Shown: positions 8,247 through 30,436, counted from the first letter of the stretch. The stretch is 32,000 nt of DNA from Alkalilimnicola ehrlichii MLHE-1 (GCF_000014785.1 NC_008340.1:2910001-2942000); one strand, 5' to 3'. Program-made: numbers and translations. Notes: generated from the sequence alone by a model not told the origin.

Positions 8247-8266
8247 CCCGCTATACAGCTAACAGG

Positions 8267-8288: not shown

Positions 8289-8324
8289 AAACGCCCTCTC
8301 ACAACCCAGGGAACGAACCAAGCC

Positions 8325-8717
8325 ATGACCCAGGTACCAGACAACCTCAAGTACAACCGCACCCACGAGTGGACCCGCTTGGAGGACGACGGCACGCTCA
8401 CCATCGGCATCACCGATCACGCCCAGAGCGAACTGGGCGATTTGGTGTTCGTGGAGACGCCCACGGTGGGGCGCCACTACGACGCCGAGGAGGCCTGCGC
8501 CGTGGTGGAATCGGTCAAGGCCGCCTCCGACATCTACGCGCCGGTGGGCGGCGAGGTGATCGAGGCCAATTCAGAGCTGCAGGACAGCCCGGAGCTGGTC
8601 AACACCGACCCCTACGGCGAGGGTTGGATCATGCGCATCCGCCCGGACGACAGCGACGACCTGGAGCAACTGCTGGACCCGGAGGACTACCAGGACCTGG
8701 TGGCCGACGAGGAGTAA
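8325..8717 (+). CDS. gcvH: Glycine cleavage system H protein (lipoyl carrier)
   Basis: LKY...HEW......G..T.GITDHAQ..LGD.VFVE.P.VG........[22 protein letters not shown]...PELVN.DPY.EGW. Contains the lipoyl-lysine motif ESVKA. 130 aa. Confidence 0.95.
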
Positions 8718-8722
8718 CGGGC

Positions 8723-10105: not shown

Positions 10106-10121
10106 GCGTAAGGAGAAGACC

Positions 10122-10622
<501 letters not shown>

Positions 10623-10701
10623 GGGCATCACGGTGGCGACGGGGCGCGCACCGCGTGCCCCCGTCCTTCGGCCGCCCCCCAACAGGCAGGAAACCGACCC
10701 G

Positions 10702-12168
10702 ATGCTGATCTTCGAACAGGCCCGCGAGGGCCGGCGCGCCGCCGCCCAGGCCCCTGAGCGTCCGACCCGGGTACCCGCACTGCCCGAGGCCTTCCGCCGG
10801 CGCAAGCGCCCCGCCCTGCCGGAGGTCTCGGAGCTACAGGCCGTGCGCCACTACACCCGGTTGTCGCAACTGAACTTCTCCATCGACACCCACTTTTACC
10901 CGCTCGGCTCCTGCACCATGAAGTACAACCCCCGCGGCTGCCACGCCGTGGCCAGCGAGCCGGGCTTTGCCGAGCGCCACCCGCTGGCCCCGTCCACCAC
11001 CGGCCAGGGGATGATGGCCTGCCTGCACGAATTGCAGGACTGGCTCACCGCGATCACCGGCATGGGTGATACCAGCCTGGCGGCCATGGCCGGCGCCCAG
11101 GGTGAGTTCTGCGGTGTAGCCATGATCATGGCCTGGCACGCCGGGCGCGGCGACCACCAGCGGAACGAGATCCTGGTGCCCGACGCCGCCCACGGCACCA
11201 ACCCGGCCACCGCCGCCCTCTGCGGCTGTACCGTACGCGAGATCCCCACGGGGCCGGACGGCGACGTGGACATGGGGGCCCTGCACGAGGCCTTGGGCCC
11301 GAGGACCGCCGGCATCATGCTCACCAATCCTTCCACGGTCGGCGTCTTTGAGCGGCGTATCCGCGAGATGGCGGACGCGGTGCACGCCGCCGGCGGGCTG
11401 CTCTATTACGACGGCGCCAACCTGAATGCCATCTTGGGCCGGGTCCGCCCCGGCGACATGGGCTTCGACGTCATGCACCTGAACCTGCACAAGACCTTCT
11501 CCACGCCCCACGGCGGCGGCGGGCCGGGGGCCGGGGCGGTCTGTGTCAGCGAGCGGCTGCGCCCCTACCTGCCGGTGCCGCAGGTGGCCCGCGAGCCGGA
11601 TGGCCGCTTCCGCTGGCTGCAGGAGGGCGACCGGCCGCACACCATCGGCCGGCTGTCCGCCTTCGGCGGCAACATCGGGGTGCTGCTGCGGGCCTGGGCC
11701 TACACCCGCATGCTGGGCCGTGAGGGCCTGCCCCGGGTGGCCGATTACGCCACCCTGAACGCCAACTACCTGATGGCGCGGCTGCAGGCGGAGGGGTTTC
11801 AGGTGGCCTACCCGGAGCGGCGCGCCAGCCACGAGTTCGTGCTCACGCTGAAATCGGAGGCCCGGGAGCTCGGGGTCACCGCCCTGGACTTCAGCAAGGC
11901 GCTGCTTGATCACGGCATCCACGCCCCTACCATGTACTTCCCGATGCTCATCCCCGAGTGCCTGCTGATCGAGCCCACCGAGACCGAGAGCTTGGCGGAG
12001 CTGGATGCCTTCGTGGCCGCCATGGTGGCCATCCGCGAGGCGGCCCGGCGTGACCCCGAGCAGGTGCGCGGGGCCCCCTATCGGCTGCCTGTGCGCCGGC
12101 TGGATGAGGTGCGCGCCGCCCGTCAGCCCGACCTGGCGTGGCGGCCGGAAGCGGCCCCTGACCCCTGA
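10702..12168 (+). CDS. gcvPB: Glycine dehydrogenase (decarboxylating) subunit 2 (P protein beta, PLP-binding)
   Basis: ORF 10534..12168 trimmed to ATG 10702 ([12 protein letters not shown]). [16 protein letters not shown]......[56 protein letters not shown] with the PLP-lysine in NLHKTF, and PTMYFP. Confidence 0.92.
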
Positions 12169-12508: not shown

Positions 12509-13368
12509 TGCGGCAGCCGGCGCAGCGCCAGCACGCTGTGCACGGCCAGGGTCGTTAACAGCAGGCCGCCAGCCACCAGGGTCTGGGGCGAGGGCGACTC
12601 GCCCAGCCAGGCCGCCACCCAGACCGGCGCCAGCACCATCTCCACCAGCATGAACAGGCTCACCTCCGGCGACGTGATATAGCGCGTCGCCGTGGCGAGC
12701 AGCCCCAGGGCCAGCGGCATCTGCACCAGGCCCATCAGGGCCAGCACGGCGTAGCTCTCGGCCGCCAGCCCCCAGGGGGCGGCGGAGGTCCAGGCCAGCA
12801 GGGCGGTGACCGCGCCCCCCAGCGAGACGGTGGGCAGCCGCGGCACCTGGGGAAAGCGGCGCAGCAGCGTGAAGTTGCCGCCCAGTACGATTGCCGCCCC
12901 CAGGGCGAAGGCGTCGCCCAACAGGCCGTCGCCGTCCAGCGAACCGGCGAACACCGTCCCCACCGCGATCACCGCCACCACCATGGCCACCCAGGTGTGC
13001 GCCGCCACCCCCTCGCGCAGAAACAGCCGGGTACAGGCGGCAGCGAACAGCGGCGCGATACTCAGGATCACCACCACGTTGGCCACCGCAGTGTGCATCA
13101 CCGCCAGCACGAAGAGCAGGCCATTCAACCCGAACATCAGGCTGGCGCCCAGCAATGGCCCCAGCGGGGCGCGGACCGCCCGTTGCCAGCCCCCCAGCCA
13201 GCCCGCCACCACCGCCAGCGACAAGGCGATGAACACCCCGCGCCAGACCGCCACCTCCCAGGGCCCGACACCGGCCAGGCGCACCAGCAGGGCGTCGAAA
13301 CTCAGCGCCAGCACCCCCGCGCCGGCAATCAGCATCCCCAGCGCCTGTCGTGACAGCCCGTCGCCCAT
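12481..13368 (-). CDS. EamA/DMT-family (drug/metabolite) transporter, about 10 TM helices
   Basis: 295-aa highly hydrophobic protein with two EamA-like halves (AGAGVLALSFDALLVRL... and GDAFALGAAIVLGGNFTLLRR...). Preferred over the overlapping 381-aa frame (12248..13393), which is Gly/Arg/Ala low-complexity. Confidence 0.8.
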   Translation of the reverse strand: MGDGLSRQALGMLIAGAGVLALSFDALLVRLAGVGPWEVAVWRGVFIALSLAVVAGWLGGWQRAVRAPLGPLLGASLMFGLNGLLFVLAVMHTAVANVVVILSIAPLFAAACTRLFLREGVAAHTWVAMVVAVIAVGTVFAGSLDGDGLLGDAFALGAAIVLGGNFTLLRRFPQVPRLPTVSLGGAVTALLAWTSAAPWGLAAESYAVLALMGLVQMPLALGLLATATRYITSPEVSLFMLVEMVLAPVWVAAWLGESPSPQTLVAGGLLLTTLAVHSVLALRRLPHQPTPTGRT

Positions 13369-13478
13369 TTCGGCGGCCCCCTGCGTTCGTCAACCGGTGA
13401 TGCGCCCGCCGCGACGTGGCCGGGCTGCGACCGGATCAGTATGATGCGGGGATCAACCCGCAGCGAAAGCGAAGGACC

Positions 13479-14585
13479 ATGATACTGCCCCTGATCCCAC
13501 TGAGCATGGCCACAACACCCCCCACCGACGCCGCCGACGCCGGCCGCCACGCCTGGGAGCGCGGCGACCCCGCGGAGGCGGCCCGTCTCTGGCGCCCCGC
13601 GGCGGAACAGGGCGACCCCGATGCCCAGGTGGGCCTGGGGCTGTTGCTGGCCCACGGCGAGGGGCTGGAGCAGGACCTGGCCGCCGCCCGCCGCTGGTGG
13701 GAGCAGGCCGCCGAGAAGGACCACGCGGATGCCTGGTTCAACCTCGGCCAGATCACCGAATACGGCCTGGACGGGACCCCGGACCCGGCCCAGGCGGCGG
13801 CACTCTACCGCCGGGCCGCCGACCAGGGCCACCCCCAGGGCCTGCACGCCCTGGCCGCCCTACTGTTCCAGGGCCAGGGCGTGCCGGAGGACCCGGCCCA
13901 GGCGGTGGCCCTGTGGCGCCGGGCCGCCGAGGCCGGCCTGCCCGATGCGGAGAACAGCCTGGGGGTGGCCCACCAGATGGGCCGCGGCGTCGAGGAGGAC
14001 TTCAGCGCCGCCGTGCGCCACTACCGCCGGGCCGCCGAACAGGGCCACCCGCAGGCCGCCGCCAATCTGGCCGGCCTGCTGGCCATGGGCCTGGGTGTGG
14101 CCCAGGACCCGACCGAGGCGGCGCGGTGGTGGCGCCTGGCGGCCGAGGCCGGCGACCCGGACGCCCAGGTCCAACTCGGCAACTGTTATCGCGACGGTCG
14201 CGGTGTGGCCCAGGACGACCAGGCGGCCGTGGACTGGTACTGGCGCGCCGCCCGTCAGGGCCATCCGGAGGGGCAGACCAACGTGGGCGTCATGCACGAT
14301 CAGGGCCGCGGGGTGTTCAAGGACCCGGCCAAGGCCGTCAAGTGGTACCGGCTCGCCGCCGAGCAGGGCTTCCCGCCGGCGCAGTACAACCTGGCCATCA
14401 TGTACTCCGAGGGACACGGGGTGGAGGAGGACAAGATCGAAGCCTGGTGCTGGTTCAGCCTGGCCGACCGCCAGGGCTACGCCCCCGCCCGCGATGCCGT
14501 GACCTGGCTCGACGAGGTCATGGACCCCATCAGCCGCGCCCGCGCCGAGGAACGTCTGCGAGTGCTGGCGGGTCAATCAGGGTAG
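13479..14585 (+). CDS. Sel1-repeat (SLR/TPR-like) protein with about 8-9 tandem repeats of roughly 36 aa
   Basis: ORF 13416..14585 trimmed to ATG 13479, which is preceded by GAAGGA. Repeated units of the form A..W.R.AAEQG...AQ..LG..Y..G.GV..D...A..WY. Examples: AARWWEQAAEKDHADAWFNLG, AVRHYRRAAEQGHPQAAANLA, AVKWYRLAAEQGFPPAQYNLAIMYSEGHGVEED. The short hydrophobic N-terminus (MILPLIPLSMA) may be an export signal. Confidence 0.8.
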   Translation: MILPLIPLSMATTPPTDAADAGRHAWERGDPAEAARLWRPAAEQGDPDAQVGLGLLLAHGEGLEQDLAAARRWWEQAAEKDHADAWFNLGQITEYGLDGTPDPAQAAALYRRAADQGHPQGLHALAALLFQGQGVPEDPAQAVALWRRAAEAGLPDAENSLGVAHQMGRGVEEDFSAAVRHYRRAAEQGHPQAAANLAGLLAMGLGVAQDPTEAARWWRLAAEAGDPDAQVQLGNCYRDGRGVAQDDQAAVDWYWRAARQGHPEGQTNVGVMHDQGRGVFKDPAKAVKWYRLAAEQGFPPAQYNLAIMYSEGHGVEEDKIEAWCWFSLADRQGYAPARDAVTWLDEVMDPISRARAEERLRVLAGQSG

Positions 14586-14639
14586 GCCCCCGGCACCGAT
14601 ACGGCGCCGCCATCCCGACAGCTAAGGAGCACACCGGCC

Positions 14640-16031
14640 ATGAACGCCTGGTCCAGCACCCTGCTTGCCACCCTGCTCGCCACCGGCCCCGCGCTGACCG
14701 CCGCCGCCCCCCCGGCGCAGGAGAGCGGCGCCGACGACCGCGAAGCCCTCTCGATCACCGTCTACCAACGCGACCTGGCCCTGGTCCGCGAGCAACGGCG
14801 GCTGGAGCTGCCGGAGGACGGCGCCCGCGTCCAGTTCACCGGTCTGCCCGGGGCCCTGGACCCGGGCAGCCTGCACCTGCGCAGCGAGACACCGTTGCGG
14901 GCCAGCGGCCTGGACTGGACCACCGGTGAGCTGGACATCGACCGGCTGCTCACCGCCCGCCGCGGTCACACCCTGACGCTGGTGCATGATGCGAGCGGTC
15001 GCCGGATCACCGGCCGACTGCTGCACAGCGACGACCGGCGGGTGCTACTGGAGACCGACCACGGCGCCGAGACGGTACCCCTGAACGATGCCTGGCGGAT
15101 CCGTTTCGGCAGCCTGCCCGCCCACCTGCAGCCGCTGCCCGCCCTCACCCTCGACCTGACGCCGGACGAGGGCGGCGAGCAGCCGGTCGAACTGGCCTAT
15201 CTCACCGGCGGGCTCTCCTGGTCCGCCCGCCACACCGCCACCCTGGATGAGACGGGCGAAGCGCTCCGCCTGGAGTCCCTGGCCGCCATCGACAACCGCA
15301 GCGGCGGCGACTGGCCCCAGGCCCGGCTGCAGCTGCTGGCCGGCGACACCCACGGCGATGACCGCCCGGTGCAGCCCATGGCGCTGCGCAGCCAGGCCGC
15401 CGAGGCCGCTGCGCCGGAGCGGGAGGCCCTGGCCGGCTACCACCTCTATACCCTGCCAGACCCACTCACCCTGCGTGATGGCGAGACCCGACTGGCCACC
15501 CTGGCGGCATCGCGCACTGTGCCGGTGGAGCGCCAGTGGGTGAGCCGGGGACAGGCCGGGCGACAACTGGCGGAACGGCAGCCACAGGGCGTGACCGGCC
15601 GACTGGTCTTCGACAACGGCGACCCCACATCGGGGACGCCGATGCCGGCGGGCCCGGTCCAGGTCTACGGCCCCGACCGCCATGGGGAATTGCAGTACCT
15701 GGGTGAACAGCGCATCGGCCATACGCCGGCCGGACAGACCGTGCGGCTCGATATCGGCCGCAGTTTTGACGTCACCGCGGAACGTACCCCGGTGAGCTGG
15801 CGCCGGCTGGACGAGCGCGGCGGCTTCGAGGCCGAGTGGCACCTCAGGGTGGACAACGCCGGCGAGCAGGCCGTGACGGTGCAGCTGGAGGAAGAGCTGA
15901 ACGGCGACTGGCAGATCCTGGAGGAGAGCGAGGCGCACGAGCGGGTCTCGGCCCGGCTGGCGCGCTGGGCGTTGCAGGTACCCGCGGAGGGCCGGACGGA
16001 GCTGCGCTACCGGGTGGAAGTCCGCCGTTAG
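14640..16031 (+). CDS. Exported DUF4140/DUF4139-like protein (mucoidy-inhibitor MuiA-like family)
   Basis: Signal peptide MNAWSSTLLATLLATGPALTAAAP. The N-terminal block LSITVYQRDLALVREQRRLELPEDGARVQFTGLPGALDPGSLHLRS resembles DUF4140. The central and C-terminal blocks (YLTGGLSWSARHTATL, YHLYTLPDPLTLRDGETRLATL, ELRYRVEVR) resemble DUF4139. The family call is from memory of the domain pattern, not a search. Confidence 0.65.
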   Translation: MNAWSSTLLATLLATGPALTAAAPPAQESGADDREALSITVYQRDLALVREQRRLELPEDGARVQFTGLPGALDPGSLHLRSETPLRASGLDWTTGELDIDRLLTARRGHTLTLVHDASGRRITGRLLHSDDRRVLLETDHGAETVPLNDAWRIRFGSLPAHLQPLPALTLDLTPDEGGEQPVELAYLTGGLSWSARHTATLDETGEALRLESLAAIDNRSGGDWPQARLQLLAGDTHGDDRPVQPMALRSQAAEAAAPEREALAGYHLYTLPDPLTLRDGETRLATLAASRTVPVERQWVSRGQAGRQLAERQPQGVTGRLVFDNGDPTSGTPMPAGPVQVYGPDRHGELQYLGEQRIGHTPAGQTVRLDIGRSFDVTAERTPVSWRRLDERGGFEAEWHLRVDNAGEQAVTVQLEEELNGDWQILEESEAHERVSARLARWALQVPAEGRTELRYRVEVRR

Positions 16032-16109
16032 CCGCGTTAACCTGCGGTGTTCTGCCGCAGGGGCGCCCTGCCGGTGTCCCGGCCCCTCCACAGCACACCG
16101 CGGGTAGCC

Positions 16110-19100
16110 ATGAACAGTCTTGACCAACACCTGGAAAGCGCCGGCCTCACCTTCGCCCGACTCCAGACCCCGGCGGGTCTGGCCGAGCTGGACCGCCGAT
16201 TCCTGGACTGGCTGCGCGAGCGCGACGGCGAGCTGTGCGAACGGCTGCTCGCCCACCGTGACCGGCAGCCGGCCACCACCCCCGACTACAGCCGGCTGCT
16301 GCTGGCCGTGGCGCCCCACCTGGAGCAGTGGCTGGCGGGGCTGTTCGGCATCACCGAGGCGCTGACCCGCCGCCGGGCCACGCTCGTCGCCGACGATGTG
16401 ATCATCGACTTCCGCCGCGAGTTCGTGCAGAAACGCGCACGCAGGGCCCGTCCGGAGGCTGACTTCACCACCCTCGACGAGGCGCTCCGCGAGGCCCTCC
16501 GCCAGGCCCGCCTGCCCACCGAGCAGGACGAGGAACTGGCGGTGGCCCGCTACGGCCTCAACCTGCTGGGTGACGAGGCAGGCCACGCCGAGGCCATCCG
16601 TGGCCTCGCCGAGTGGTGCGCCCGCGCCCTGGAGACCCCGGAGGGGCGTGCGCGGGTGGCCGGCTGGACCGCCTTCCGCCTGCCGCGCAAGGTGGACCAC
16701 GCCCGCCTGGTGCCGCTGCGCCGGGCCGACCTGCCCGGTGCCGCCCGGCTGGCGGCCGCCACAGAACACCACCGCAGCCGCGACGGTTTCAGCCTCACCG
16801 ACCCGCGCATGTCCGCCCGCGATGTGCACGCCGAGACGCACTACTGCGTGCTCTGCCACGAGCACGCCGGCGACTTCTGCTCCCGCGGTTTCCCGGAGAA
16901 GAAGAAGCAACCGGAACTGGGCTACCGGGTGGACCCGCTGGGCAACACCCTCACCGGCTGCCCGCTGGAGGAGAAGATCAGCGAGATGCACGCCCTGCGC
17001 CGGGAGGGGCGAGTGATCGCCGCCCTGGCCATGATCATGGTGGACAACCCCATGGTCCCGGCCACCGGCCACCGGATCTGCAACGACTGCATGAAGGCAT
17101 GCATCTACCAGAAGCAGGATCCGGTGAACATCCCCCAGGCCGAGACCGGGGTGCTCACCGAGGTGCTGGACCTGCCCTGGGGGGTCGAACTCTACCACCT
17201 GCTGGCCCGCTGGAACCCGCTGCGTCCCCAGCAGTACCTGGAGCAGCCCCACAACGGCCGCCGGGTGCTGGTGGCCGGGATGGGCCCGGCCGGTTTCACC
17301 ATGGCCCACCACCTCACCATGGCCGGCTGCAAGGTGGTCGGCATCGATGGGCTCAAGGTCGAGCCCCTGCCCGAGGACATCCTCCGCGGCCCGGTGCGCG
17401 ACTGGGACCAGTTGGCCGAGGACCTGGACGAGCGCACCCTGCTCGGCTTCGGCGGGGTGGCCGAGTACGGCATCACGGTGCGCTGGGACAAGAACTTCCT
17501 CAAGCTCATCTACCTCACCCTGGCCCGGCGCCAGACCTTCAGCGTCCACGGCGGCGTGCGCCTGGGCGGCACCCTCACCCTGGAGGACGCCTGGGAACAG
17601 GGCTTTGACCACGTCTGCGTCGCCACCGGCGCCGGCTACCCGCGGGTCATCCCCATGGGCAACTCGCTCGCCCGCGGCATGCGCCAGGCCAACGACTTCC
17701 TGATGGCCCTGCAACTCACCGGCGCCGGCAAGATGAGCTCCATCGCCAACCTCCAGGTACGCCTGCCGGCGGTGGTCATCGGTGGCGGGCTCACCGGCGT
17801 GGACACCGCCACCGAGGTGCAGGCCTACTACATCCGCCAAGTGGAAAAGGTGCTCTGGCGCTACGAGACCCTGGTGGCCGAACGCGGCGAGGCGCGCGTG
17901 CGCGACCGGTTGAACGACGAGGATCAGGCCATCCTGGATGAGTTCCTGGCCCACGGCCGAGCGGCCCGCGATGAGCGCGCGAAGGCCGCCGCCGAGGGCC
18001 GGGAACCCGACTTTATCCCGCTGATCCAGAAGTGGGGCGGGGTGACCATCGCCTACCGCAAGGGCATGAACGCCTCGCCCGCCTACACCCGCAACCACGA
18101 GGAGTTGCGGGCGGCCACCGAGGAGGGGCTCTACTACGCCGAGGGCCTGGACCCCATCCACGCCCGGCTGGACGAGCACCACCACATCCGCAGCCTGGTT
18201 TGCCGACAGATGAAGCACGATGCCGGCCGCTGGTTCACTACCAGCCACGAGGTGGAACTGCCCGCCCGCTCGGTCTTCGTGGCCGCCGGCACCGTACCCA
18301 ACACCATCTACGAACACGAGCACCCGGGCAGCCTGGAGCTGGAGGGCAACCACTACCGGCCCCACGCCTTTCACAACGAGGGCCTGCAACCGGTGCAGAC
18401 CGCCGAGCACGTCAAGTCGCCGGAGGCGGGTCCCTTCACCGGCTACCGCCATCAGGGGCGCACGGTCACCTTCCTGGGCGACACCCACCCGGTCTACCAG
18501 GGCAGCGTGGTGAGGGCCATCGCCTCGGCCCACGACAGCTGGCCGGAGGTGATGAAGGCCCTGGACAGCCTGCCGGCTCGGGTGCCCAACCCGGACCCCC
18601 ACGCCTTCCAGCGCCGTGTCGCCGACCTGCTGAGCGCGGAGGTGGTCTCGGTGAACCGGGACAACCCGGCGGTCACCGAGATCTGGGTGCGCGCCCCGGC
18701 TGCCGCCCGGCGTTTCCGCCCCGGGCAATTCTTCCGGCTGCAGACCTACGAGAGCCACTCCCCGCTGGTGGCCGGCACCCGGCTCCAGGTCCCGCTGCTC
18801 ACCGTCTCGGGCACCGGCATCGACGGCGACTGCATCCGCCTGATGGTCTTCCAGTGGGGGGCCGGCCCGCGCATCGCCGGCCGGCTCCGGCCCGGTGACC
18901 CGGTGGTACTGATGGGCCCCACCGGTGCCCCCACCGATATCCCCAGCGGCGAGACGGTGCTGGTGGTGGCCGGGCGCTGGGGCGCGGCGGTGATGCACGA
19001 CATCGGCTCAGCCCTGCGCGCCGCCGGCAACCGGGTGCTCTACCTGGCCGCCTTCGGCTCGCCCCGCGATGTGGACCACCAGGGGGAGCTGGAGGCCGGT

Positions 19101-19604
19101 GCCGACCAGATCATCTGGTGCACCGCCGGTGAGGCGCTGATTGAGGCCCGCCGCCCGGGGGACTGCGCGGTGCAGGCCACCGACATGCTGGATGTGCTGC
19201 GCCGGTACGCCGACGGCGAGATCCGCCCGGTCGAGGGCCGCGGCCTGCCGCTCTCCTCGGTGGACCGCATCCTGGTAATGGGCGGCACCGGGCTGCTCAA
19301 GGGCTTCCAGGCCGCCCTGGGTGACCACCTGGGCGGCCGCCTCGCCCCCGGGGTCCAGGCCCACGGCACCGTGGGCAGCCCGATGCAGTGCATGCTCAAG
19401 GGCGTCTGTGCCCAGTGCCTGCAGTGGCAGCTCGACCCGGAAACCGGCAAACGCACCCGCCCGGTCTTCTCCTGCGCCGAACAGGACCAGCCCCTGGCCT
19501 GGATCGACCTGGACAACCTGGCCGCCCGCCAGCAGCAGAACCGCCTGCTGGACCAGCTCACCGGCCAATGGGTGGACCACGTGCTGGCCCGAGCTGACGA
19601 CTGA
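16110..19604 (+). CDS. Large fused iron-sulfur flavoprotein (~1164 aa): unassigned N-terminal domain (~245 aa), GltD/NfnB-like module (2x[4Fe-4S] plus FAD/NAD(P)H), and PyrK/NfnA-like ferredoxin-reductase module (FAD/NAD plus C-terminal [2Fe-2S])
   Basis: Cys motifs at about 16845-17100: HYCVLCHEHAGDFC, GCPLEEKISEMHAL, ATGHRICNDCMKACIY. These parallel the GltD/NfnB motifs C..C....C, GCPL.N.IPEW and TG.VCP..CE..C. Dinucleotide folds: VLVAGMGPAGFTMA (about 17263) and AVVIGGGLTGVDTATE. The C-terminal third has FRPGQFFRLQ (about 18715), PVVLMGPTGAP and a Cys cluster CMLKGVCAQCLQW...FSCAEQ (about 19387-19480), as in PyrK/NfnA. The start is uncertain: ATG 16110 was chosen, and GTG 16047 is possible. 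Confidence 0.8.
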   Translation: MNSLDQHLESAGLTFARLQTPAGLAELDRRFLDWLRERDGELCERLLAHRDRQPATTPDYSRLLLAVAPHLEQWLAGLFGITEALTRRRATLVADDVIIDFRREFVQKRARRARPEADFTTLDEALREALRQARLPTEQDEELAVARYGLNLLGDEAGHAEAIRGLAEWCARALETPEGRARVAGWTAFRLPRKVDHARLVPLRRADLPGAARLAAATEHHRSRDGFSLTDPRMSARDVHAETHYCVLCHEHAGDFCSRGFPEKKKQPELGYRVDPLGNTLTGCPLEEKISEMHALRREGRVIAALAMIMVDNPMVPATGHRICNDCMKACIYQKQDPVNIPQAETGVLTEVLDLPWGVELYHLLARWNPLRPQQYLEQPHNGRRVLVAGMGPAGFTMAHHLTMAGCKVVGIDGLKVEPLPEDILRGPVRDWDQLAEDLDERTLLGFGGVAEYGITVRWDKNFLKLIYLTLARRQTFSVHGGVRLGGTLTLEDAWEQGFDHVCVATGAGYPRVIPMGNSLARGMRQANDFLMALQLTGAGKMSSIANLQVRLPAVVIGGGLTGVDTATEVQAYYIRQVEKVLWRYETLVAERGEARVRDRLNDEDQAILDEFLAHGRAARDERAKAAAEGREPDFIPLIQKWGGVTIAYRKGMNASPAYTRNHEELRAATEEGLYYAEGLDPIHARLDEHHHIRSLVCRQMKHDAGRWFTTSHEVELPARSVFVAAGTVPNTIYEHEHPGSLELEGNHYRPHAFHNEGLQPVQTAEHVKSPEAGPFTGYRHQGRTVTFLGDTHPVYQGSVVRAIASAHDSWPEVMKALDSLPARVPNPDPHAFQRRVADLLSAEVVSVNRDNPAVTEIWVRAPAAARRFRPGQFFRLQTYESHSPLVAGTRLQVPLLTVSGTGIDGDCIRLMVFQWGAGPRIAGRLRPGDPVVLMGPTGAPTDIPSGETVLVVAGRWGAAVMHDIGSALRAAGNRVLYLAAFGSPRDVDHQGELEAGADQIIWCTAGEALIEARRPGDCAVQATDMLDVLRRYADGEIRPVEGRGLPLSSVDRILVMGGTGLLKGFQAALGDHLGGRLAPGVQAHGTVGSPMQCMLKGVCAQCLQWQLDPETGKRTRPVFSCAEQDQPLAWIDLDNLAARQQQNRLLDQLTGQWVDHVLARADD

Positions 19605-19816
19605 CGGACGGCGGTGCGCCGGCGGGGGCGGATTACGGTTCAGGCCGACTTTTGCCCACCGAGCAACGCAGGGAAAAATCGGATGAAGCGCGTGCCTGTT
19701 CGAGCGAAGCGAGTTCACGCGCGCCGATTTTTCCCGAGTAGCGCAGGGTACCCGAAGGGTGCGCAATCGGAGGCCTGAACCGTAATCCGCCCCCGCCGGC
19801 GCACCGCCGTCCGTCA
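19602..19816. repeat. 215-bp nested palindromic element: 45-bp perfect inverted repeats flanking a 125-bp core that contains a second, imperfect inverted repeat (MITE/REP-like, or a giant 3' hairpin)
   Basis: 19602..19646 (TGACGGACGGCGGTGCGCCGGCGGGGGCGGATTACGGTTCAGGCC) is the exact reverse complement of 19772..19816. Inner repeat: GGGAAAAATCGG (19671..19682) plus GCGCGTG (19688..19694) pairs with CACGCGC (19716..19722) plus CCGATTTTTCCC (19724..19735). The first three nucleotides of the left arm are the TGA stop of the upstream 1164-aa gene. Confidence 0.85.
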
Positions 19817-19872
19817 CCCCCTATTTCCTACGGTGTCAGCGGGCTTGAAAAGCCGGCCGGAAAAGCGCAGGC

Positions 19873-19881
19873 TGATACAAT
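19873..19881 (+). promoter_or_regulatory. Candidate extended -10 promoter element (TGATACAAT) for the DUF2892 gene
   Basis: TG-n-TACAAT is 39 nt upstream of ATG 19920. A TTGAAA at about 19845 is spaced too far away to serve as a -35. Pattern match only. Confidence 0.25.
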
Positions 19882-19919
19882 CTTTTAATTGAATACATCC
19901 CCCAACTGGAGGTCTCCGT

Positions 19920-20117
19920 ATGAACCTGAAACAGAACATGGGCACCGTGGACCGTGCCCTCCGCGCCATCGTCGGCGTCATCCTGCTGGCGCTGGTCTTC
20001 GTCGGTCCGCAGACCCCTTGGGGCCTGATCGGTATCATCCCGCTGGCCACCGCCGCCATCGGCTGGTGCCCCGTCTACCTGCCCCTGGGCCTCAGCACCT
20101 GCGGCAAGAAGACCTGA
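19920..20117 (+). CDS. Small DUF2892 (YgaP-C-terminal-like) two-TM membrane protein
   Basis: MNLKQNMGTVDRALRAIVGVILLALVF...GLIGIIPLATAAIGWCPVYLPLGLSTC. The motif N.G..DR..R...G.......... GL.G..PL.T...G.CP.Y...G..T is the DUF2892 signature. Good SD (GGAGG). Confidence 0.75.
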   Translation: MNLKQNMGTVDRALRAIVGVILLALVFVGPQTPWGLIGIIPLATAAIGWCPVYLPLGLSTCGKKT

Positions 20118-20150
20118 CCGCCGGCCGCTGACGGCAGTGCCAACCGAATA

Positions 20151-20181
20151 ACGCCCGGGGGCCCAAAAGGCCGTCGGGCGT
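20151..20181. terminator. Candidate bidirectional hairpin terminator between the convergent DUF2892 gene and cynS
   Basis: ACGCCCG-gg-GGCC-caaaa-GGCC-gt-CGGGCGT: 11 bp in two helices. It is followed by cATTTCTT on the plus strand and TTATT on the minus strand. The U-tracts are weak. Confidence 0.45.
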
Positions 20182-20210
20182 CATTTCTTCACCGTCGACA
20201 ACCGCAGCCT

Positions 20211-20654
20211 TCACCAGCGTTTGTAGGGCAGGAACTTCCCGTTCAGGGTGAGCACCACCCGATCGCCCTTCGGGTCCTCGACCTTGTCCACCTCCATGGT
20301 GAAGTCGATGGCACTCATGATGCCGTCACCGAACTTCTCCTGGATCACCTGCTTCAGGGTCTCGCCGTAGACCATCACCACCTCGTTCAGACGATAGACC
20401 AGCGGGTCGGAGAGCATCTCTTGGTAGCGCTGGCCCTTCTCCGGGTAGACCTGCAACGCCGCCCCCACCTCACCGGGCAGCCCCAGCACGCCGCAGAGCT
20501 TTTCGGCCGGATCGGCCAGCAGGCTGTTCTCTCCCAGGCAGGCGGAACAGATGAAGACCGGCGACAGGCCCGTGGCCTCCCCGATGGCCTCCCAGCTCAT
20601 GCCTTTGAACTGCTTGGCGGCCAGGATCGCTTCACGCATTTCTGCCTTGTTCAT
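20211..20654 (-). CDS. cynS: Cyanase (cyanate hydratase)
   Basis: ORF 20211..20678 trimmed to ATG 20654 (SD GAGGA 8 nt upstream), giving 147 aa, the same size as cyanobacterial CynS. The C-terminal catalytic half is nearly invariant: DPLVYRLNEVVMVYGETLKQVIQEKFGDGIMSAIDFTMEVDKVEDPKGDRVVLTLNGKFLPYKRW. Confidence 0.93.
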   Translation of the reverse strand: MNKAEMREAILAAKQFKGMSWEAIGEATGLSPVFICSACLGENSLLADPAEKLCGVLGLPGEVGAALQVYPEKGQRYQEMLSDPLVYRLNEVVMVYGETLKQVIQEKFGDGIMSAIDFTMEVDKVEDPKGDRVVLTLNGKFLPYKRW

Positions 20655-20718
20655 GGTTGTCATCCTCTTGAAGGTCAAAGGTTAGGGCACACGGCTACGC
20701 CGCGCTCAAGGTAGTACT

Positions 20719-20736
20719 CACCTGCCGTGGCAGGTG
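20719..20736 (-). other. Hairpin immediately after the cynD stop (CACCTGCC-ac-GGCAGGTG on the minus strand)
   Basis: Perfect 8+8 inverted repeat seen in the 86-nt cynD-cynS spacer. No U-run follows. A possible mRNA-stability or processing element. Confidence 0.3.
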
Positions 20737-20740
20737 CGGT

Positions 20741-21613
20741 TCAGCCATTCACAACCCGCTTTCCGGGCTCCGGTTCCTCGCCGACATTGACCTCGGCCGC
20801 CTTGCGGGTGCCGCTCTGCCCCTGCAGTTCCCGGGAGCGCCGGACCAGGAAGTCGACCAAGTGGTTGCGGGTCGGGTAGTAGTTGGGGTGCTCGATGATG
20901 GAGGTCCGGTCCCGCGGCCGGGGGATATCCACCTTCACCGCCTCGGCCACGTGGGCCTCCGGGCCGTTGGTCATCAGCAGGATGCGGTCGGAGAGCAGGA
21001 TGGCCTCGTCCACGTCGTGGGTGATCATGAACACCGTCTGCCCGGAGTCGCTCCAGATCCGCAGCAACTCGTCCTGGATGGTGCCCCGGGTCAGGGCGTC
21101 CAGGGCGCCGAAGGGCTCGTCCATGAGCAGCAGCTTGGGTTCGATGGCGAAGGCGCGGGCGATACCCACCCGCTGGCGCATGCCGCCGGAAAGCTCCGCC
21201 GGGCGCCGGGTCTCACTGCCCTCCAGCCCCACGAGCCGGATGTACTTCATGGCGTGCTCACGCACCTGCTGACGGCTCCAGCCCGGCCAGCGGGCCTGGG
21301 TGGCAAACACCACGTTGGCCAGGGCGCTCTTCCAGGGCAGCAGGCTGTGGTTCTGGAAGATCACCCCCCGGTCCAGGCTCGGGCCCTTCACTTCCTTGCC
21401 GTCCATGAAGACGTTGCCGTCGGTGGCCTCGTCCAGGCCCGCCAGCACGTTCAGGATGGTGGACTTGCCGCAGCCGGAGTGGCCGATGACACAGATGAAC
21501 TCGCCCTTCTCGATGTTGAAGTCCACCCCGTCAAAGACGGTAAGCGGGTCCCCGCCGCGGGCAGCGGGGAAGGTCTTCTTGAGGCTTTCCACCTCGAGGA
21601 ATGCATGACTCAT
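20741..21613 (-). CDS. cynD: ABC transporter ATP-binding protein of the nitrate/cyanate/bicarbonate (NrtD/CynD/SsuB) family
   Basis: ORF trimmed to ATG 21613 (SD GGGAGAG). Walker A GHSGCGKST, Q-loop, signature LSGGMRQR, Walker B LLLMDEPFGALD and H-loop ITHD. The gene symbol is assigned from operon context with cynS, not from substrate evidence. Confidence 0.88.
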   Translation of the reverse strand: MSHAFLEVESLKKTFPAARGGDPLTVFDGVDFNIEKGEFICVIGHSGCGKSTILNVLAGLDEATDGNVFMDGKEVKGPSLDRGVIFQNHSLLPWKSALANVVFATQARWPGWSRQQVREHAMKYIRLVGLEGSETRRPAELSGGMRQRVGIARAFAIEPKLLLMDEPFGALDALTRGTIQDELLRIWSDSGQTVFMITHDVDEAILLSDRILLMTNGPEAHVAEAVKVDIPRPRDRTSIIEHPNYYPTRNHLVDFLVRRSRELQGQSGTRKAAEVNVGEEPEPGKRVVNG

Positions 21614-21631
21614 AGGGTCTCTCCCGGGGCA

Positions 21632-21654
21632 GCCCCCGGCGCTCGGCCGGGGGC
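21632..21654 (-). other. GC-rich hairpin in the 96-nt cynB-cynD spacer (GCCCCCGG-7 nt-CCGGGGGC)
   Basis: Perfect 8-bp inverted repeat read from the sequence, ending about 18 nt before the cynD SD. Function unknown. Confidence 0.3.
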
Positions 21655-21709
21655 GCATTGCCCACAGTGACGTTGTACGCGGATGCCTGAATTCAGTGAA
21701 TGCACGGGC

Positions 21710-22549
21710 TCATTCGGCGTACTGCACGGCCCGGGTGGCCATGGCCAGCATGCTGTCCAGGATCATGCCGACGATCCCGATCATGAGCACCGCGAAGATC
21801 ACGCTGGTCAGATCCAGGTTGTTCCACTGGTTCCAGACGAAGTAGCCGACGCCGGTTCCACCGACGAGCATCTCGGCGGCCACGATGACCAGCCAGGAGA
21901 TCCCGATGGCAATGCGCATGCCGGTGAGGATGGTGGGTGCGGCGGCCGGCAGGATCACCGAGAAGGCGGTTTTCACCGGCGAGAGCTGCAGCGTGCGCGC
22001 CACGTTCAGCAGGTCCTTCTTGACCCCCGCCACCCCGAAGGCGGTATTCACCAGGATGGGCCAGACGGAACAGATGAAGATGACGAAGATCGCCGACTGC
22101 ACCGAGTCCTGGATGATGTAGAGCGCCAGGGGCATCCAGGCCAGCGGCGAGATGGGCCGCAGCACCTGGATGTAGGGGTTAAGCGCCTTCTGCATCACCG
22201 GCGACATGCCCACCACGAAGCCCAGCGGGATGGCCACCAGCACCGCCAGCCCGTAGCCGGCCAGCACCCGGCCTATGGAGTGGGCCAGTTGGGTGCCGAT
22301 GCCCTTGTCGTTGCTGCCCCGGTCGTAGAAGGGGTCAGAGAGCTCCGTCACCGCCAGGCTCAACACCTCCGACGGCGCCGGGATGTTGCTGCTGGAAGCG
22401 CTGCCCGCGCCGGTGAGCATTTCGTACTCGCTGAGCTCCTCCTGCCCGGGAACCAGGGTGCCACCCACGCTCCACTCCCAGATGCCCAATATCACCACGA
22501 GCATGGCGAGGCTGAGGACGACGGCCTTGAGGTTCTCGCGACTCAACAT
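21710..22549 (-). CDS. cynB: ABC transporter permease of the NrtB/CynB family
   Basis: 279-aa, 6-7 TM protein. Family EAA loop: NVARTLQLSPVKTAFSVILPAAAPTILTGMRIAIGISW. ATG 22549 lies 3 nt after the cynA stop, with GGAGG inside the cynA 3' end. Confidence 0.88.
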   Translation of the reverse strand: MLSRENLKAVVLSLAMLVVILGIWEWSVGGTLVPGQEELSEYEMLTGAGSASSSNIPAPSEVLSLAVTELSDPFYDRGSNDKGIGTQLAHSIGRVLAGYGLAVLVAIPLGFVVGMSPVMQKALNPYIQVLRPISPLAWMPLALYIIQDSVQSAIFVIFICSVWPILVNTAFGVAGVKKDLLNVARTLQLSPVKTAFSVILPAAAPTILTGMRIAIGISWLVIVAAEMLVGGTGVGYFVWNQWNNLDLTSVIFAVLMIGIVGMILDSMLAMATRAVQYAE

Positions 22550-22552
22550 GGC

Positions 22553-23980
22553 TTACGACCTCCGTATCTCGAAGCTGTCCACGTAGGCCTCCGGCTGCTC
22601 AGGGTCGAACGCCTTGCCCATGATCATGTGGCTCTTGTAGGTGACCTCCGGCGGCTCGTAGCCCAGCTCGCGCATGAGTTTGCCGCAGTCGGTGGCCAGG
22701 TAGACCTCTTCGGCGATGCCCTTGTAGTCCACGTCGCCGTCCACGTAACCCCAGCGCTTCATCTGGGTCATGATCCACACCGCCATGGAGTGCCAGGGGA
22801 AGGGGTCGAAGTCGATCCGGTCCGGGTCCTCCTTGACGTTGCCCAGCCCGTCGGCGTAGCGGCCAGTCAGCACCTGCTGAATCACCGATACCGGCTGGTT
22901 CAGGTAGTTGCGCGGGGCGATGGCCTCGGAGATCTCGGCCCGGTTCTCGTGCTCGGAGGCATAGTGGGTGGCGTCCACGATGGCCTTGAACAGGGCACCG
23001 AAGCTGTTCGGGTACTCCTCGGCAAAGGCGCGGCTGGTGGCGAAGGCGCAGCAGGGGTGGCCGTCCCAGATCTCCTTGGTGAGCAGGTGGATGAAACCCA
23101 CCTCCTCCCAGACCGCCCGCTGGTTGAAGGGGTCGGGGGCCAGGTAGCCGTCCACGTTGCCGGCGCGCAGGTTGGCCACCATCTCCGGCGGCGGCAGCAC
23201 GCGAATCTGGATATCCCGGTCCGGGTCCAGGCCGTGCTCGGCGACGTAGTAGCGCAGCAGGAAGTTGTGCATGGAGAAGTCGAAGGGCACGGCGAAGCGG
23301 AAGCCCTTCCACTGGCTGGGGTCGCGCTTGTCCTTGTGCTTGTTGTGCAGGGTGATGGCCTGGCCGTTGATGTTCTCCACCGCCGGCATGATGAAGGGCA
23401 TGCTCGACGAGCCGGTGCCCATGGTCATGGCCAGGGGCATGGGGGTGAGCATGTGGGAGGCGTCGTACTCCCGGTTCATGGACATATCCCGGGCCACCGC
23501 CCAGCCGGCGGTGGAGCGCAGGTCCACGTTCAGCCCGTAGCGCTCGTAGAAGCCCATGGGGTGGGCCATGATGATGGGCGTGGCGCAGGTGATGGGCACA
23601 AAGCCCACGGTCAGGTCGCGCTTCTCGGGGTCACCCAGGTTGTCCTTGAGCATGGCCTTGGCCGCATCCAGCGGGAATATGGAGCCCACCGCCGCAGCAA
23701 AGGTGCCGGCGCCCACCGCCTTCAGGAAGAAACGCCGGCTGGCGTCGTGGTGACCGAACAGGGCACGCACCACCGCGCTCTCCACGGCCCGGTCGAACAT
23801 GGCCTCTTTGTCGACGCCCTGCTTCGCGGCCAGCATCTGGTTGGCGTCCTGCTCCGCTGGGGCGGCCCCGTGGTCGTGCTGGGCATGTTCGCCGCCACCG
23901 CAGCTGGAGCAGGTGCAGCCCGCTCCGTGGCGCAGGTCCGCCTCCGGGTTGAACGGGTCGTTGAGTGATCGGTTGCTCAT
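22553..23980 (-). CDS. cynA: NrtA/CmpA/CynA-family periplasmic substrate-binding protein with a twin-arginine signal and an unusual 80-aa Cys/His-rich N-terminal extension
   Basis: Tat motif SRRFFLKAVGAGTFAAAVG at residues 81-99. Mature-domain blocks typical of NrtA-like proteins: LTVGFVPITCATPIIMA, GW.V.RD, GQAIT, FAVPF..SMHN.LLRYY.AEHGLDPD.DIQ....PP.EMVANL..GN.DG.L.PDPFNQRAV, HPCC.FA. The start at 23980 is backed by a strong SD (GGGAGG, 8 nt) directly after the leader terminator. Confidence 0.88.
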   Translation of the reverse strand: MSNRSLNDPFNPEADLRHGAGCTCSSCGGGEHAQHDHGAAPAEQDANQMLAAKQGVDKEAMFDRAVESAVVRALFGHHDASRRFFLKAVGAGTFAAAVGSIFPLDAAKAMLKDNLGDPEKRDLTVGFVPITCATPIIMAHPMGFYERYGLNVDLRSTAGWAVARDMSMNREYDASHMLTPMPLAMTMGTGSSSMPFIMPAVENINGQAITLHNKHKDKRDPSQWKGFRFAVPFDFSMHNFLLRYYVAEHGLDPDRDIQIRVLPPPEMVANLRAGNVDGYLAPDPFNQRAVWEEVGFIHLLTKEIWDGHPCCAFATSRAFAEEYPNSFGALFKAIVDATHYASEHENRAEISEAIAPRNYLNQPVSVIQQVLTGRYADGLGNVKEDPDRIDFDPFPWHSMAVWIMTQMKRWGYVDGDVDYKGIAEEVYLATDCGKLMRELGYEPPEVTYKSHMIMGKAFDPEQPEAYVDSFEIRRS

Positions 23981-24003
23981 GGTGCTTACCTCCCGCCAAT
24001 AAC

Positions 24004-24048
24004 AAAAAAGGGCGCGGCATCGGCCGGTAGCCGACGCCAGACGCCCTT
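24004..24048 (-). terminator. Strong intrinsic terminator inside the cynA 5' leader (the regulated attenuator)
   Basis: Minus strand: AAGGGCG-tct-GGCGTCGGC-taccg-GCCGATGCC-g-CGCCCTT-TTTT. The two helices of 7 bp and 9 bp (one G-U pair) are followed by a run of six T. It ends about 20 nt before the cynA SD/ATG. Confidence 0.8.
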
Positions 24049-24094
24049 GCCTGGAAAGCCTGTTTCAGTGCCTGCCACCACCCGCCGTTGGGTG
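24037..24094 (-). promoter_or_regulatory. ANTAR-type RNA target: two hairpins with A-x-x-G hexaloops, the second overlapping the terminator 5' arm (antiterminator)
   Basis: Minus strand hairpin 1, 24094..24079: CACCC-AACGGC-GGGTG. Hairpin 2, 24054..24037: CCAGGC-AAGGGC-GTCTGG (one G-U pair). Both loops are 6 nt, with A at position 1 and G at position 4. The linker is 24 nt. The loop and 3' arm of hairpin 2 (AAGGGCGTCTGG) are the same nucleotides as the terminator 5' arm. Confidence 0.75.
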
Positions 24095-24135
24095 TCGCGC
24101 TGCGACGGACAGGGCACTGATGTCAGTGATGTATA

Positions 24136-24151
24136 TTCAATTCGCGTGCCA
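24136..24151 (-). promoter_or_regulatory. Sigma-54 (-24/-12)-like promoter for the cyn operon (TGGCAC-GCGAA-TTGAA)
   Basis: On the minus strand there is a perfect -24 element TGGCAC(G) and correct 5-nt spacing to TTG. The -12 reads TTGA instead of the consensus TTGC. It lies about 40 nt upstream of ANTAR hairpin 1. Confidence 0.45.
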
Positions 24152-24215
24152 GATTTGGCTTTTACCGTTGAAACAACGTGTTACGAAATAGCTTGACACC
24201 CCGTGGCGGGGCAAC

Positions 24216-24232
24216 TGCACGGCATCGGTGCG
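24216..24232. promoter_or_regulatory. Possible NtrC-type enhancer half-site pair (GCAC-N7-GTGC)
   Basis: CGCACCGATGCCGTGCA (minus strand) has the spacing of the NtrC consensus TGCACCA-N3-TGGTGCA and matches about 10 of 14 specified positions by hand. It is about 70-80 bp upstream of the sigma-54-like promoter, just after the nasT-like stop. Weak evidence. Confidence 0.25.
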
Positions 24233-24250
24233 GGCATGCACTGCCGCGGG

Positions 24251-24832
24251 TCAACCGTGGGCCAGGCCCGCGTCGACGAGCAGCCTGCGCGCCAGACGCG
24301 GAATAGGCTGCCCGCAGTTCATGGCGCGGCGGCGCAGCAGGTGGTAGGCATCGGCCTCGCCCAGCCCCTCGCGCTCCATCAGCAGGCACTTGGCCTGGTG
24401 CACATCACGCTGCTCGGCAAGCTGGCGGCGAGTGTCCGCCAGCTCGCGGGTCAACCCCTGAAAGCGCTCGTACTGCCGGATGGCCAGGCGGATCGCCCCT
24501 TGCACCCCTTCGCGCGGCACGCCCCCCACGGCGTAGGCACTGAGCCCCGCCGCCGCGGCTGTGCTCATCAATTCCGGGTCGTGATGAACGGAGCCGTTCA
24601 TCACCGGCCCCGGGTACCGCCCCCCGCGGCTGCACAGCCCCTCCAGGGTGTCGCGTTTGCCCGATCCCGCTTCGGTGATGATCACCTCCGGCTCCTCGTC
24701 GAGCACCCGCTGGTAAAGGTCATCCGCGCCCTGCACGGTGGCCACCACGGTAAAGCCCGCCACCTGCAGTGACTCCTCGAGCCAGGCCGAACGCTCCGGC
24801 GAATCATCGACCAGCATGACTTTGGTGACCAT
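24251..24832 (-). CDS. nasT: NasT/AmiR-type two-domain regulator: receiver-like domain plus ANTAR RNA-binding antiterminator domain
   Basis: ATG 24832 (SD GGAG 6 nt upstream) was preferred over the track's TTG at 24838. The N-terminus VMLVDDSPER...EVIITEAGSGKRDTLEGL is receiver-like. The C-terminus LTRELADTRRQLAEQRDVHQAKCLLMEREGLGEADAYHLLRRRAMNCGQPIPRLARRLL is the ANTAR helix bundle (AKG.LM......E..AY..LR..AM). Confidence 0.88.
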   Translation of the reverse strand: MVTKVMLVDDSPERSAWLEESLQVAGFTVVATVQGADDLYQRVLDEEPEVIITEAGSGKRDTLEGLCSRGGRYPGPVMNGSVHHDPELMSTAAAAGLSAYAVGGVPREGVQGAIRLAIRQYERFQGLTRELADTRRQLAEQRDVHQAKCLLMEREGLGEADAYHLLRRRAMNCGQPIPRLARRLLVDAGLAHG

Positions 24833-24881
24833 GAGCAACTCCAGGGGCTGAGCCCGTCAGCAATGATGCAGCGCAAAATAA

Positions 24882-29114: not shown

Positions 29115-30432
<1,318 letters not shown>

Positions 30433-30436
<4 letters not shown>

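Follow-up and report, generated by a model that had tools for sequence, protein, structure and literature searches.

What lies at this locus? The stretch of DNA analyzed here, a 32,000-nucleotide window from Alkalilimnicola ehrlichii MLHE-1 (GCF_000014785.1, NC_008340.1:2910001-2942000, with positions counted from its first letter), contains a complete gene on the + strand, 16110..19604. Its product of 1164 amino acids (aa), followed by a stop codon, is on sequence grounds almost certainly an RP005/PRK06567-type single-chain Fe-S flavoprotein. The longest open reading frame (ORF) runs from a GTG at 16047 to 19604; we accepted the ATG at 16110 as the start, because orthologs begin at the same methionine (MNSLDQHLES in the window protein, MISLNQHLEN in its ortholog P0001). 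The GC content at third codon positions is 0.93 in a window of ~70% GC, typical of genuine genes there. An earlier reading of the sequence—the first-pass annotation—had described a single 1164-aa chain in which an NfnB/GltD-type module is followed by an NfnA/PyrK-type module (B-then-A order). HMMER, Foldseek, and hhalign agree on this architecture, and every motif coordinate given in that annotation converts to the residues named there.

How widespread is this family, and how much of it was already on record? A genome scan found relatives, as full-length orthologs, in at least 596 species of many phyla; orthologs with 62-91% identity to the window protein along their full length are among them. 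The 80 loci that we kept, in which tblastn matches span about residues 10-1160, come from Ectothiorhodospiraceae, Acidithiobacillus, Legionellales, Methylococcales, Myxococcota, Acidobacteriota, Planctomycetota, Nitrospirota, Gemmatimonadota, Binatia, and others. Close relatives are named only "FAD-dependent oxidoreductase" at NCBI, and the representatives of distant clusters bear generic names too. From the fetched loci we made a phylum-spanning alignment of 35 sequences (Gammaproteobacteria, Myxococcota, Acidobacteriota, Planctomycetota, Nitrospirota, and others), to which all statements on invariance below refer; 154 of its columns are invariant. Mean identity to the window protein is highest in the NfnB-like core (62-68%) and lowest in the N-terminal domain (31%).

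The first-pass annotation had set the fusion against characterized systems with separate subunits; by these numbers and the literature, it is not unusual. A 2013 paper counts PRK06567, a "GltD-UbiB chimera," among the hallmarks of nearly all Rickettsiales (PMC3641634), and B-then-A fused homologs of Nfn have been recorded since 2019 as "Pattern C," an uncharacterized group from Actinobacteria and from Alpha- and Gammaproteobacteria. The window gene is a routine ortholog of a catalogued, widespread family and not a new fusion. It shares the architecture of the NF005128/PRK06567 family from the N-terminal domain onward and is ~130 aa longer than that 1031-position profile. With 557.6 bits against an equivalog cut-off of 1072 bits, however, it belongs to a divergent branch and not to the rickettsial equivalog. 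Pattern C (Mobiluncus curtisii type) is likewise B-then-A and ~200 aa longer than other fused Nfn, and by our own reckoning it probably corresponds to NCBIfam NF009415/PRK12779. On that model the window protein scores 65.2 bits against a cut-off of 1519; furthermore, Pattern C was collected at 40-90% identity to C. kluyveri NfnAB, whereas RP005-family identity to Nfn is about 16-20%. On these two counts the RP005 family is separate from Pattern C and more divergent.

The region ahead of the two modules, which had been called an unassigned domain of 245 residues, proves both assignable and shorter. In the hhalign alignment the invariant R224-D-G-F-x-L-T-D-x-R is the R-x-x-N-F segment at the N-terminus of NfnB; residues ~213-245 thus match the normal NfnB N-terminus, and the extra part is confined to residues ~1-210 (16110..16739; this and all other features of the gene lie on the + strand). 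It forms a family-specific helical bundle, recognized from the AlphaFold2 (AF2) model and ortholog annotation as the core of Pfam family PF27156 RP005_N, named after Rickettsia prowazekii RP005. We assigned PF27156 through P0001, which is 91% identical to the window protein overall and 81% in the N-terminal region: in precomputed annotation, PF27156 precedes Pyr_redox_2 on P0001 and on nearly all of the 120 homologs listed. Our own Pfam scan of the full protein, with a library that did not contain PF27156, returned only Pyr_redox_2 and a weak Fer4_20. The region is also covered by the NCBIfam model NF005128/PRK06567 (E = 5e-167 over aa 14-713), whose profile lies on residue 14 onward from position 8 onward. 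Whether the N-terminus belongs to a well-characterized family, a possibility that the first-pass annotation had allowed for, therefore has a divided answer: a family can be assigned, but that family is itself uncharacterized and has no known function.

Modeled alone, the N-terminal domain is an all-helical bundle with an AF2 predicted local distance difference test score (pLDDT) of 85.7, and it contains a moderately conserved basic helix at aa 101-112 (F101-K-x-x-F-V-x-[KR]-R-x-x-[KR]). A Foldseek search with its fold gave no significant match in the PDB (best E = 5.3) or BFVD (best E = 1.3), its sequence profile had none among PDB sequences (best E = 0.1), and a per-member scan at E up to 10 placed no other Pfam family on it. 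An exhaustive profile search located the domain in 1,702 clusters (50% identity), always at the N-terminus, with full-length hits of 1,050-1,250 aa. Stand-alone or otherwise fused copies were considered and rejected: the short hits inspected enter the HYCxYCH...GDFCSKGFPEKK motif and then end, and we take them to be contig-end fragments because the sequence runs into the Fe-S motif and stops. As far as these searches reach, then, the domain was found only fused to this enzyme.

The NfnB/GltD-type helical Fe-S domain follows at aa 213-350 (16746..17159), delimited by hhalign to NfnB. Short Fe-S segments were too short for HMMER anchoring against the PDB, and canonical NfnA/SudB and NfnB N-terminal sequences were gathered for hhalign. 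The domain bears the R224-D-G-F motif and two Cys motifs, C246-x2-C249-x7-C257-x26-C284-P and C324-N-D326-C327-x3-C331, from nucleotide (nt) 16845 for C246 to nt 17100 for C331. Residues 213-420 align with the NfnB Fe-S domain at 97.9% probability (E = 4e-13). The motifs of NfnB itself, RCx2Cx4Cx3CPV and GRVCPQExQCx3C, hold 7 Cys and 1 Glu (PMC6405883); C246, C249, C257, and C284 fall on the first (RC-x2-C-x4-C-x3-CP), and C324, C327, and C331 on the second. All seven Cys are invariant across the many phyla in the alignment, as are H250 and D255. The Pfam match to Fer4_20 (aa 282-346) is weak and subthreshold. Between the third and fourth Cys of the first motif sits a family-specific insertion of 23 residues, SRGFPEKKKQPELGYRVDPLGNT (aa 258-280, 16881..16949), which appears as a gap in the NfnB profile and in which G260, K264, and L277-G278 are conserved.

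The stretch aa 380-815 (17247..18554), delimited by Pfam and HMMER alignments, comprises two Rossmann folds, which serve b-FAD and NADPH. Pyr_redox_2 matches aa 385-573 (E = 4.7e-10), and the GxGxxG folds lie at aa 385-395 (nt 17263) and aa 554-562 (nt 17770). Motifs in this part are GMGPAG (390-395), GFGGVAEYGITVRWDKNFL (446-464, including R458), GGGLTGVD (558-565), Y649-R650-K651, and GDTHP (790-794); the last, a flavin motif, is conserved family-wide as GD(T/N)HP. R458 is invariant and stands opposite R201 of NfnI-L in HMMER alignments to 5jca_L and 5vj7_A; from this we infer that it is the Arg in contact with N5 of b-FAD, a residue stated to be conserved in all Nfn homologs (PMC6405883). 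Y649-R650-K651 stands opposite YRR of NfnI-L, with R650 invariant and position 651 an Arg in 20 sequences and a Lys in 15. By the roles described for the NADP-site residues, as for the N5 Arg, in Nfn (PMC6405883), R650/K651 would be the basic pair for the NADP(H) 2'-phosphate, a feature of Nfn that this protein appears to share, and NADPH is a likely substrate. The NADPH-binding fold is interrupted by a family-specific helical hairpin of 73 aa (aa 570-642, 17817..18035), recognized from the HMMER alignment and the model: residues 569 and 643 match NfnI-L residues 310 and 316, and the model has helices at 562-592 and 603-628.

The NfnA/PyrK-type FNR-like module (aa 843-1085, 18636..19364; hhalign and Foldseek) consists of an a-FAD beta-barrel (RPGQFFRLQ at 870-878 and a strand at 890-901) and a nucleotide-binding fold (MGPTG at 935-939). 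FRPGQFFRLQ corresponds to aa 869-878 (nt 18715) and VLMGPTGAP to aa 933-941. By hhalign the C-terminal module matches NfnA at 99.8% probability (E = 4e-30, 261 columns), and Foldseek of the C-terminal part of the model gave template modeling (TM) scores of 0.79 to 5jca_S, 0.76 to 4ylf_A, and 0.68 to PyrK (1ep1_B). NfnA has an a-FAD strand ERxPxT and an NAD-binding loop GGGxGxA (PMC6405883). The window protein reads TRLQVPLLTVSG along the strand (aa 890-901, nt 18777-18812) in place of ERxPxT, and the loop divides the family into subtypes: GGGLGNA, paired with ..MEGLALTG, is the form in most phyla; the gammaproteobacterial clade of the window pairs AGRWGAA with ..VPLLTVSG; and in Legionellales-type and a few other lineages the loop is degenerate (GNQASFS, GNEMAAL, DSQQGLA). 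Throughout these subtypes, the Cys ligands of [2Fe-2S] are invariant. They belong to the all-Cys motif that follows the module (aa 1086-1126, 19365..19487; hhalign to NfnA), C1094-x5-C1100-x2-C1103-x18-C1122 at nt 19389-19475, and all four are invariant in the 35 sequences. The chain ends in a long helix (aa 1134-1162, 19509..19595, from the secondary structure of the model); hhalign reaches NfnA position 267 of 277, and the helix is like the C-terminal helical extension described for NfnA (PMC6405883). Canonical NfnA proteins carry PF10418, which was not reported for the window protein in the Pfam scan.

Which known systems does the protein resemble most? A search of PDB sequences paired the middle of the protein with NfnI-L (5jca_L, E = 1.5e-14) and Xfn-L (5vj7_A), and aa 846-1005 with NfnA (4ylf_A) and NfnI-S (5jca_S; E ~1e-8 to 1e-9 for NfnA and NfnI-S), similarities much stronger than chance would give, and a family profile made these pairings sharper. 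HMMER also matches 4ylf_B and 5vj7_B; by Foldseek, the central part of the model matches NfnI-L, NfnB, and GltD. With NfnAB the window enzyme shares the two modules, five cofactor sites, the Cys ligand positions, the N5 Arg, the NADP 2'-phosphate pair, and the C-terminal helix. The first-pass annotation had tied its reading to the Cys motifs aligning with cluster ligands, and hhalign does put 7 + 4 Cys on [4Fe-4S] and [2Fe-2S] ligand positions. The protein is thus very probably, by alignment, an Fe-S flavoprotein whose scaffold holds two flavins and three Fe-S clusters in the Nfn arrangement, and its conservation around b-FAD is very strong. It differs from NfnAB in the B-then-A fusion, in ~210 extra N-terminal residues, in the 23-aa and 73-aa insertions, in an overall identity of about 16-20%, and in having aerobes as hosts. 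P. furiosus NfnII/Xfn (5VJ7) is the top-scoring PDB sequence match of the family profile (E = 1e-18). Its small-subunit nucleotide site is altered and it does not use NAD+ (PMC6405883), which parallels the noncanonical loop of the window enzyme; unlike that enzyme, Xfn, the product of an archaeal anaerobe, consists of two subunits and lacks the N-terminal domain.

The best explanation of these features, and on balance a probable one from the sequence comparisons, is an electron-transfer enzyme that oxidizes NADPH and, with a cofactor chain like that of Nfn/Xfn, reduces a ferredoxin-like acceptor. NADPH would be oxidized at b-FAD, with R458 facing flavin N5 and R650/K651 holding the 2'-phosphate. 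One electron path would lead over the two [4Fe-4S]-type clusters to a one-electron carrier of low potential docked at the surface; ferredoxin is the most plausible candidate, although we propose a ferredoxin-type partner only tentatively. The other path would pass the all-Cys [2Fe-2S] cluster and reach the a-FAD of the FNR-like module, where the second substrate may not be NAD+, because the nucleotide loop is noncanonical (AGRWGAA) in the window's clade and Xfn offers a precedent. Since the N-terminal bundle directly precedes the Fe-S domain and bears a basic helix, it may act as a docking or scaffold domain for the partner. The enzyme is cytoplasmic, with no export signal.

Several observations weigh against an Nfn-like, ferredoxin-reducing enzyme. 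The segment that holds the NfnB Glu cluster ligand, QE(x), three residues in all, is deleted in the hhalign alignment. Position 326, inside C324-N-[DE]-C327, is always acidic (Asp in 32 and Glu in 3 of the 35 sequences), and this D/E326 might substitute for the lost ligand; the spacing left by the deletion, C-x2-C-x3-C, resembles that of GltD (C-x3-C-x3-C in 7mfm_I). At the [2Fe-2S] site, C1094 occupies the position of the NfnA Asp ligand, and C1100, C1103, and C1122 lie on the three NfnA Cys ligands. NfnA has the motif DGTGMCGxCRx10CV, and its Asp-ligated cluster lies at about +80 mV (PMC6405883). Because the first ligand in the window protein is an invariant Cys, the cluster should be Cys4 and not Asp-Cys3, with a potential predicted well below the +80 mV of Nfn. 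The NAD loop at 954-960 (nt 18969-18989) reads AGRWGAA and not GGGxGxA. The full-length AF2 model (pLDDT 69, predicted TM score 0.70) falls below a pLDDT of 50 around every cofactor site (243-287, 317-346, 439-460, and 1089-1124). Our literature search found no functional study, biochemical or genetic, of any RP005-family member, only mentions in genome annotations.

Genomic context adds to these difficulties. Clustering of the neighbors at 71 loci revealed no conserved operon partner, with no neighbor family in more than 6 loci; the gene is therefore best regarded as a stand-alone unit. Of 72 loci, a single one has a small ORF with a ferredoxin motif within 3 kb. That ORF, in Acidithiobacillus sp. 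HP-2 (L023 13627-13965, - strand), encodes an FdxA-type 7Fe ferredoxin (CIQCKYTDCAEVCPVECF...) ~2.1 kb downstream. Divergent from the gene in 5-6 Methylococcales-type loci are lipB, lipA (a radical S-adenosylmethionine [SAM] enzyme), and DUF493, and a frataxin-like CyaY gene lies ~1.4 kb downstream in five Myxococcaceae loci (L033, L035, L039, L049, L066). These neighbors are a weak hint at Fe-S or radical-SAM metabolism; each occurs in a single clade, however, and may reflect simple synteny. The loci with lipB-lipA-DUF493 upstream on the opposite strand are L021, L034, L064, L067, L069, and L071.

Does the likeness to Nfn extend to its chemistry? A single-chain bifurcating Nfn would couple NADPH oxidation at b-FAD to the reduction of ferredoxin, through [4Fe-4S], and of NAD+, through [2Fe-2S] and a-FAD, or run the reaction in reverse. 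One polypeptide holds the whole Nfn cofactor chain and all its ligand positions align, the b-FAD N5 Arg is invariant, NfnI and NfnAB are the top structural matches, and most of the wider family has the canonical NAD loop GGGLGNA. In related enzymes, an N5 Arg is not unique to those that bifurcate. The likening to bifurcating NfnAB in the first-pass annotation was premature, as three features that define Nfn are not present in their usual form in the window protein: the segment with the Glu ligand for the [4Fe-4S] pair is deleted, although D/E326 might stand in for that ligand; Cys takes the place of the Asp to which the Nfn [2Fe-2S] cluster owes its +80 mV (PMC6405883); and in the window's clade AGRWGAA replaces GGGxGxA. 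The hosts, moreover, are aerobic, a setting in which Nfn is almost unknown. We accordingly regard true flavin-based bifurcation as doubtful, and an RP005-type bifurcating Nfn as unlikely.

The same departures can be read another way, as marks of a nonbifurcating NAD(P)H reductase for a dedicated acceptor (a protein, quinone, or small molecule) bound by the N-terminal domain or the a-FAD module. The NfnA-like module would then serve only to conduct electrons internally or to admit them at a second site, as in PyrK-PyrD, GltD-GltB, and Xfn. The Fe-S spacing C-x2-C-x3-C is indeed nearer to GltD (C-x3-C-x3-C, 7mfm_I) than to NfnB; a Cys4 [2Fe-2S] cluster is found in PyrK by our own reading of the motif, with 1ep1_B and 5ksw_B among the structural matches; between lineages the nucleotide loop of the a-FAD module varies or has degenerated, whereas every [2Fe-2S] ligand is invariant; and NfnII/Xfn provides an Nfn-like enzyme without NAD+ use (PMC6405883). 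Yet the neighborhood offers no conserved gene for a candidate acceptor, the N-terminal domain shows no recognizable ligand-binding fold, and of all parts of the protein that domain is conserved least, which would be surprising in a catalytic substrate site. We consider a dedicated reductase of this kind improbable and retain, as the preferred reading, NADPH oxidation with transfer to a ferredoxin-like acceptor.

Could the title that NCBIfam gives to NF005128, bifunctional glutamate synthase beta subunit and 2-polyprenylphenol hydroxylase, be taken literally, with roles in glutamate and ubiquinone synthesis? The homology to GltD is real (7mfm_I, 6s6s_E): GltD has a similar fold and Fe-S motif spacing, just as PyrK has a similar FNR fold with an all-Cys [2Fe-2S] cluster. 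The window enzyme, however, fuses GltD-like and PyrK-like units to each other and not to a catalytic partner. Its scores on the GltD models (TIGR01317, 52 bits against a cut-off of 448; TIGR01318, 28 against 483) and on the PyrK models (NF000799, NF000798, and NF000796, 14-22 bits against cut-offs of 219-314) are far below threshold. No GltB-like ORF, the large subunit that such a beta subunit would serve, was found among the window genes scanned or among conserved neighbors at the 71 loci; likewise, no pyrD was found near the gene among the window genes scanned, and no PyrD partner is conserved near it. Ehrlichia has the gene but no GOGAT, and the "hydroxylase" half is an FNR/PyrK-type electron-transfer module, not a monooxygenase. 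The polyprenylphenol hydroxylase label derives from an old COG name. The literal name is very improbable as a description of function.

What, then, might the enzyme do in the cell? A likely task in aerobes is to draw electrons of low potential from NADPH for consumers such as ferredoxin-dependent radical-SAM or Fe-S enzymes. Retention of the family in reduced Rickettsiales genomes that lack GOGAT, Ehrlichia among them, speaks for a core housekeeping redox role. As the main Nfn-like enzyme of aerobic bacteria, the RP005 family would, if it moves electrons from NADPH to ferredoxin with or without bifurcation, help to explain how aerobes obtain low-potential electrons. A bolder version—that the family is an oxygen-tolerant, single-chain, NADPH-driven bifurcating enzyme that makes reduced ferredoxin in aerobes (Rickettsiales, nitrifiers, acidithiobacilli, methanotrophs, and myxobacteria), with RP005_N as the docking platform for ferredoxin—strikes us as quite unlikely; if true, it would explain how radical-SAM enzymes (e.g., LipA) and Fe-S biogenesis are supplied with electrons without pyruvate:ferredoxin oxidoreductase. 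The family is a worthwhile target in any case, being large, strongly conserved (62-68% in the NfnB-like core across phyla), and retained in reduced Rickettsiales genomes. The residue map presented here—the cluster ligands, R458, R650/K651, the deleted Glu segment, the Cys4 [2Fe-2S] site, and the clade-specific NAD loop—is open to mutagenesis.

Immediately upstream, on the same strand, lie genes for a Sel1-repeat protein (13416-14585) and a DUF4140/DUF4139 protein (14640-16031). The first-pass annotation had noted both neighbors, correctly as to their presence and strand; as partners, however, they are not conserved according to the neighbor clustering. The Sel1 gene recurs near the target gene in no other locus. 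DUF4139 recurs only in the two closest genomes (L001 13409-15193, L002 13240-14805), where it lies downstream of the target with a gene for another protein of ~480-500 aa in between; its placement reflects local rearrangement and not a fixed operon. One could still suppose that the three genes form a unit with the exported Sel1-repeat and DUF4139 proteins, given their common strand, the gap of 79 bp before the target, and the DUF4139 gene near the target in the two closest genomes, or that the enzyme is a flavohemoglobin-like detoxifier of nitric oxide or peroxide, as was speculated in 2006 for Anaplasmataceae homologs (PMC1366493). DUF4139 is near the gene in only 3 of 72 loci, though, and the neighbors look exported while the enzyme has no export signal; as to a flavohemoglobin, neither Pfam nor the searches by PDB sequence and by fold turned up a globin or heme domain. 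We give either idea scarcely any credence. In gene order, the syntenic metagenome contig L081 agrees with the window.

No promoter-like sites were found, terminator-like sites occurred at the level of shuffled sequence, and there were no Rfam matches in 13000-21000. A near-perfect palindrome of ~215 nt begins at the stop codon of the target gene (19602-19816). Its 59-nt arms are 92% complementary and, with an inner 12-nt inverted repeat, fold into one hairpin (free energy -164.6 kcal/mol, z = -15.4); it is present in one copy in the window and has no Rfam match. L081 lacks the palindrome, and the distance from the stop codon to the next ORF is ~94 bp there versus 316 bp in the window; the element thus looks like an insertion resembling a miniature inverted-repeat transposable element, and it may act as a terminator also. 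Downstream of the target, 19920-20117 (+) is a 65-aa ORF with a Pfam YgaP-like_TM match (E = 1.4e-24), conserved in L081. It is followed on the - strand by a cyanate-utilization cluster (20211-24838), the same in L081, that comprises cyanase (CynS), an ABC ATPase, a permease, an NMT1/NrtA-like binding protein, and an ANTAR-domain regulator. Farther upstream, 7152-12168 (+) holds the glycine-cleavage genes gcvT and those for two P-protein subunits, with a Redoxin/AhpC-type peroxiredoxin gene (10122-10622) between the P-subunit genes; the first ~120 aa of ORF 8369-10105 have no Pfam match, and its start may be overextended. Genes for E1 and E2 of a lipoate-dependent 2-oxoacid dehydrogenase lie at 29111-31977 (-).

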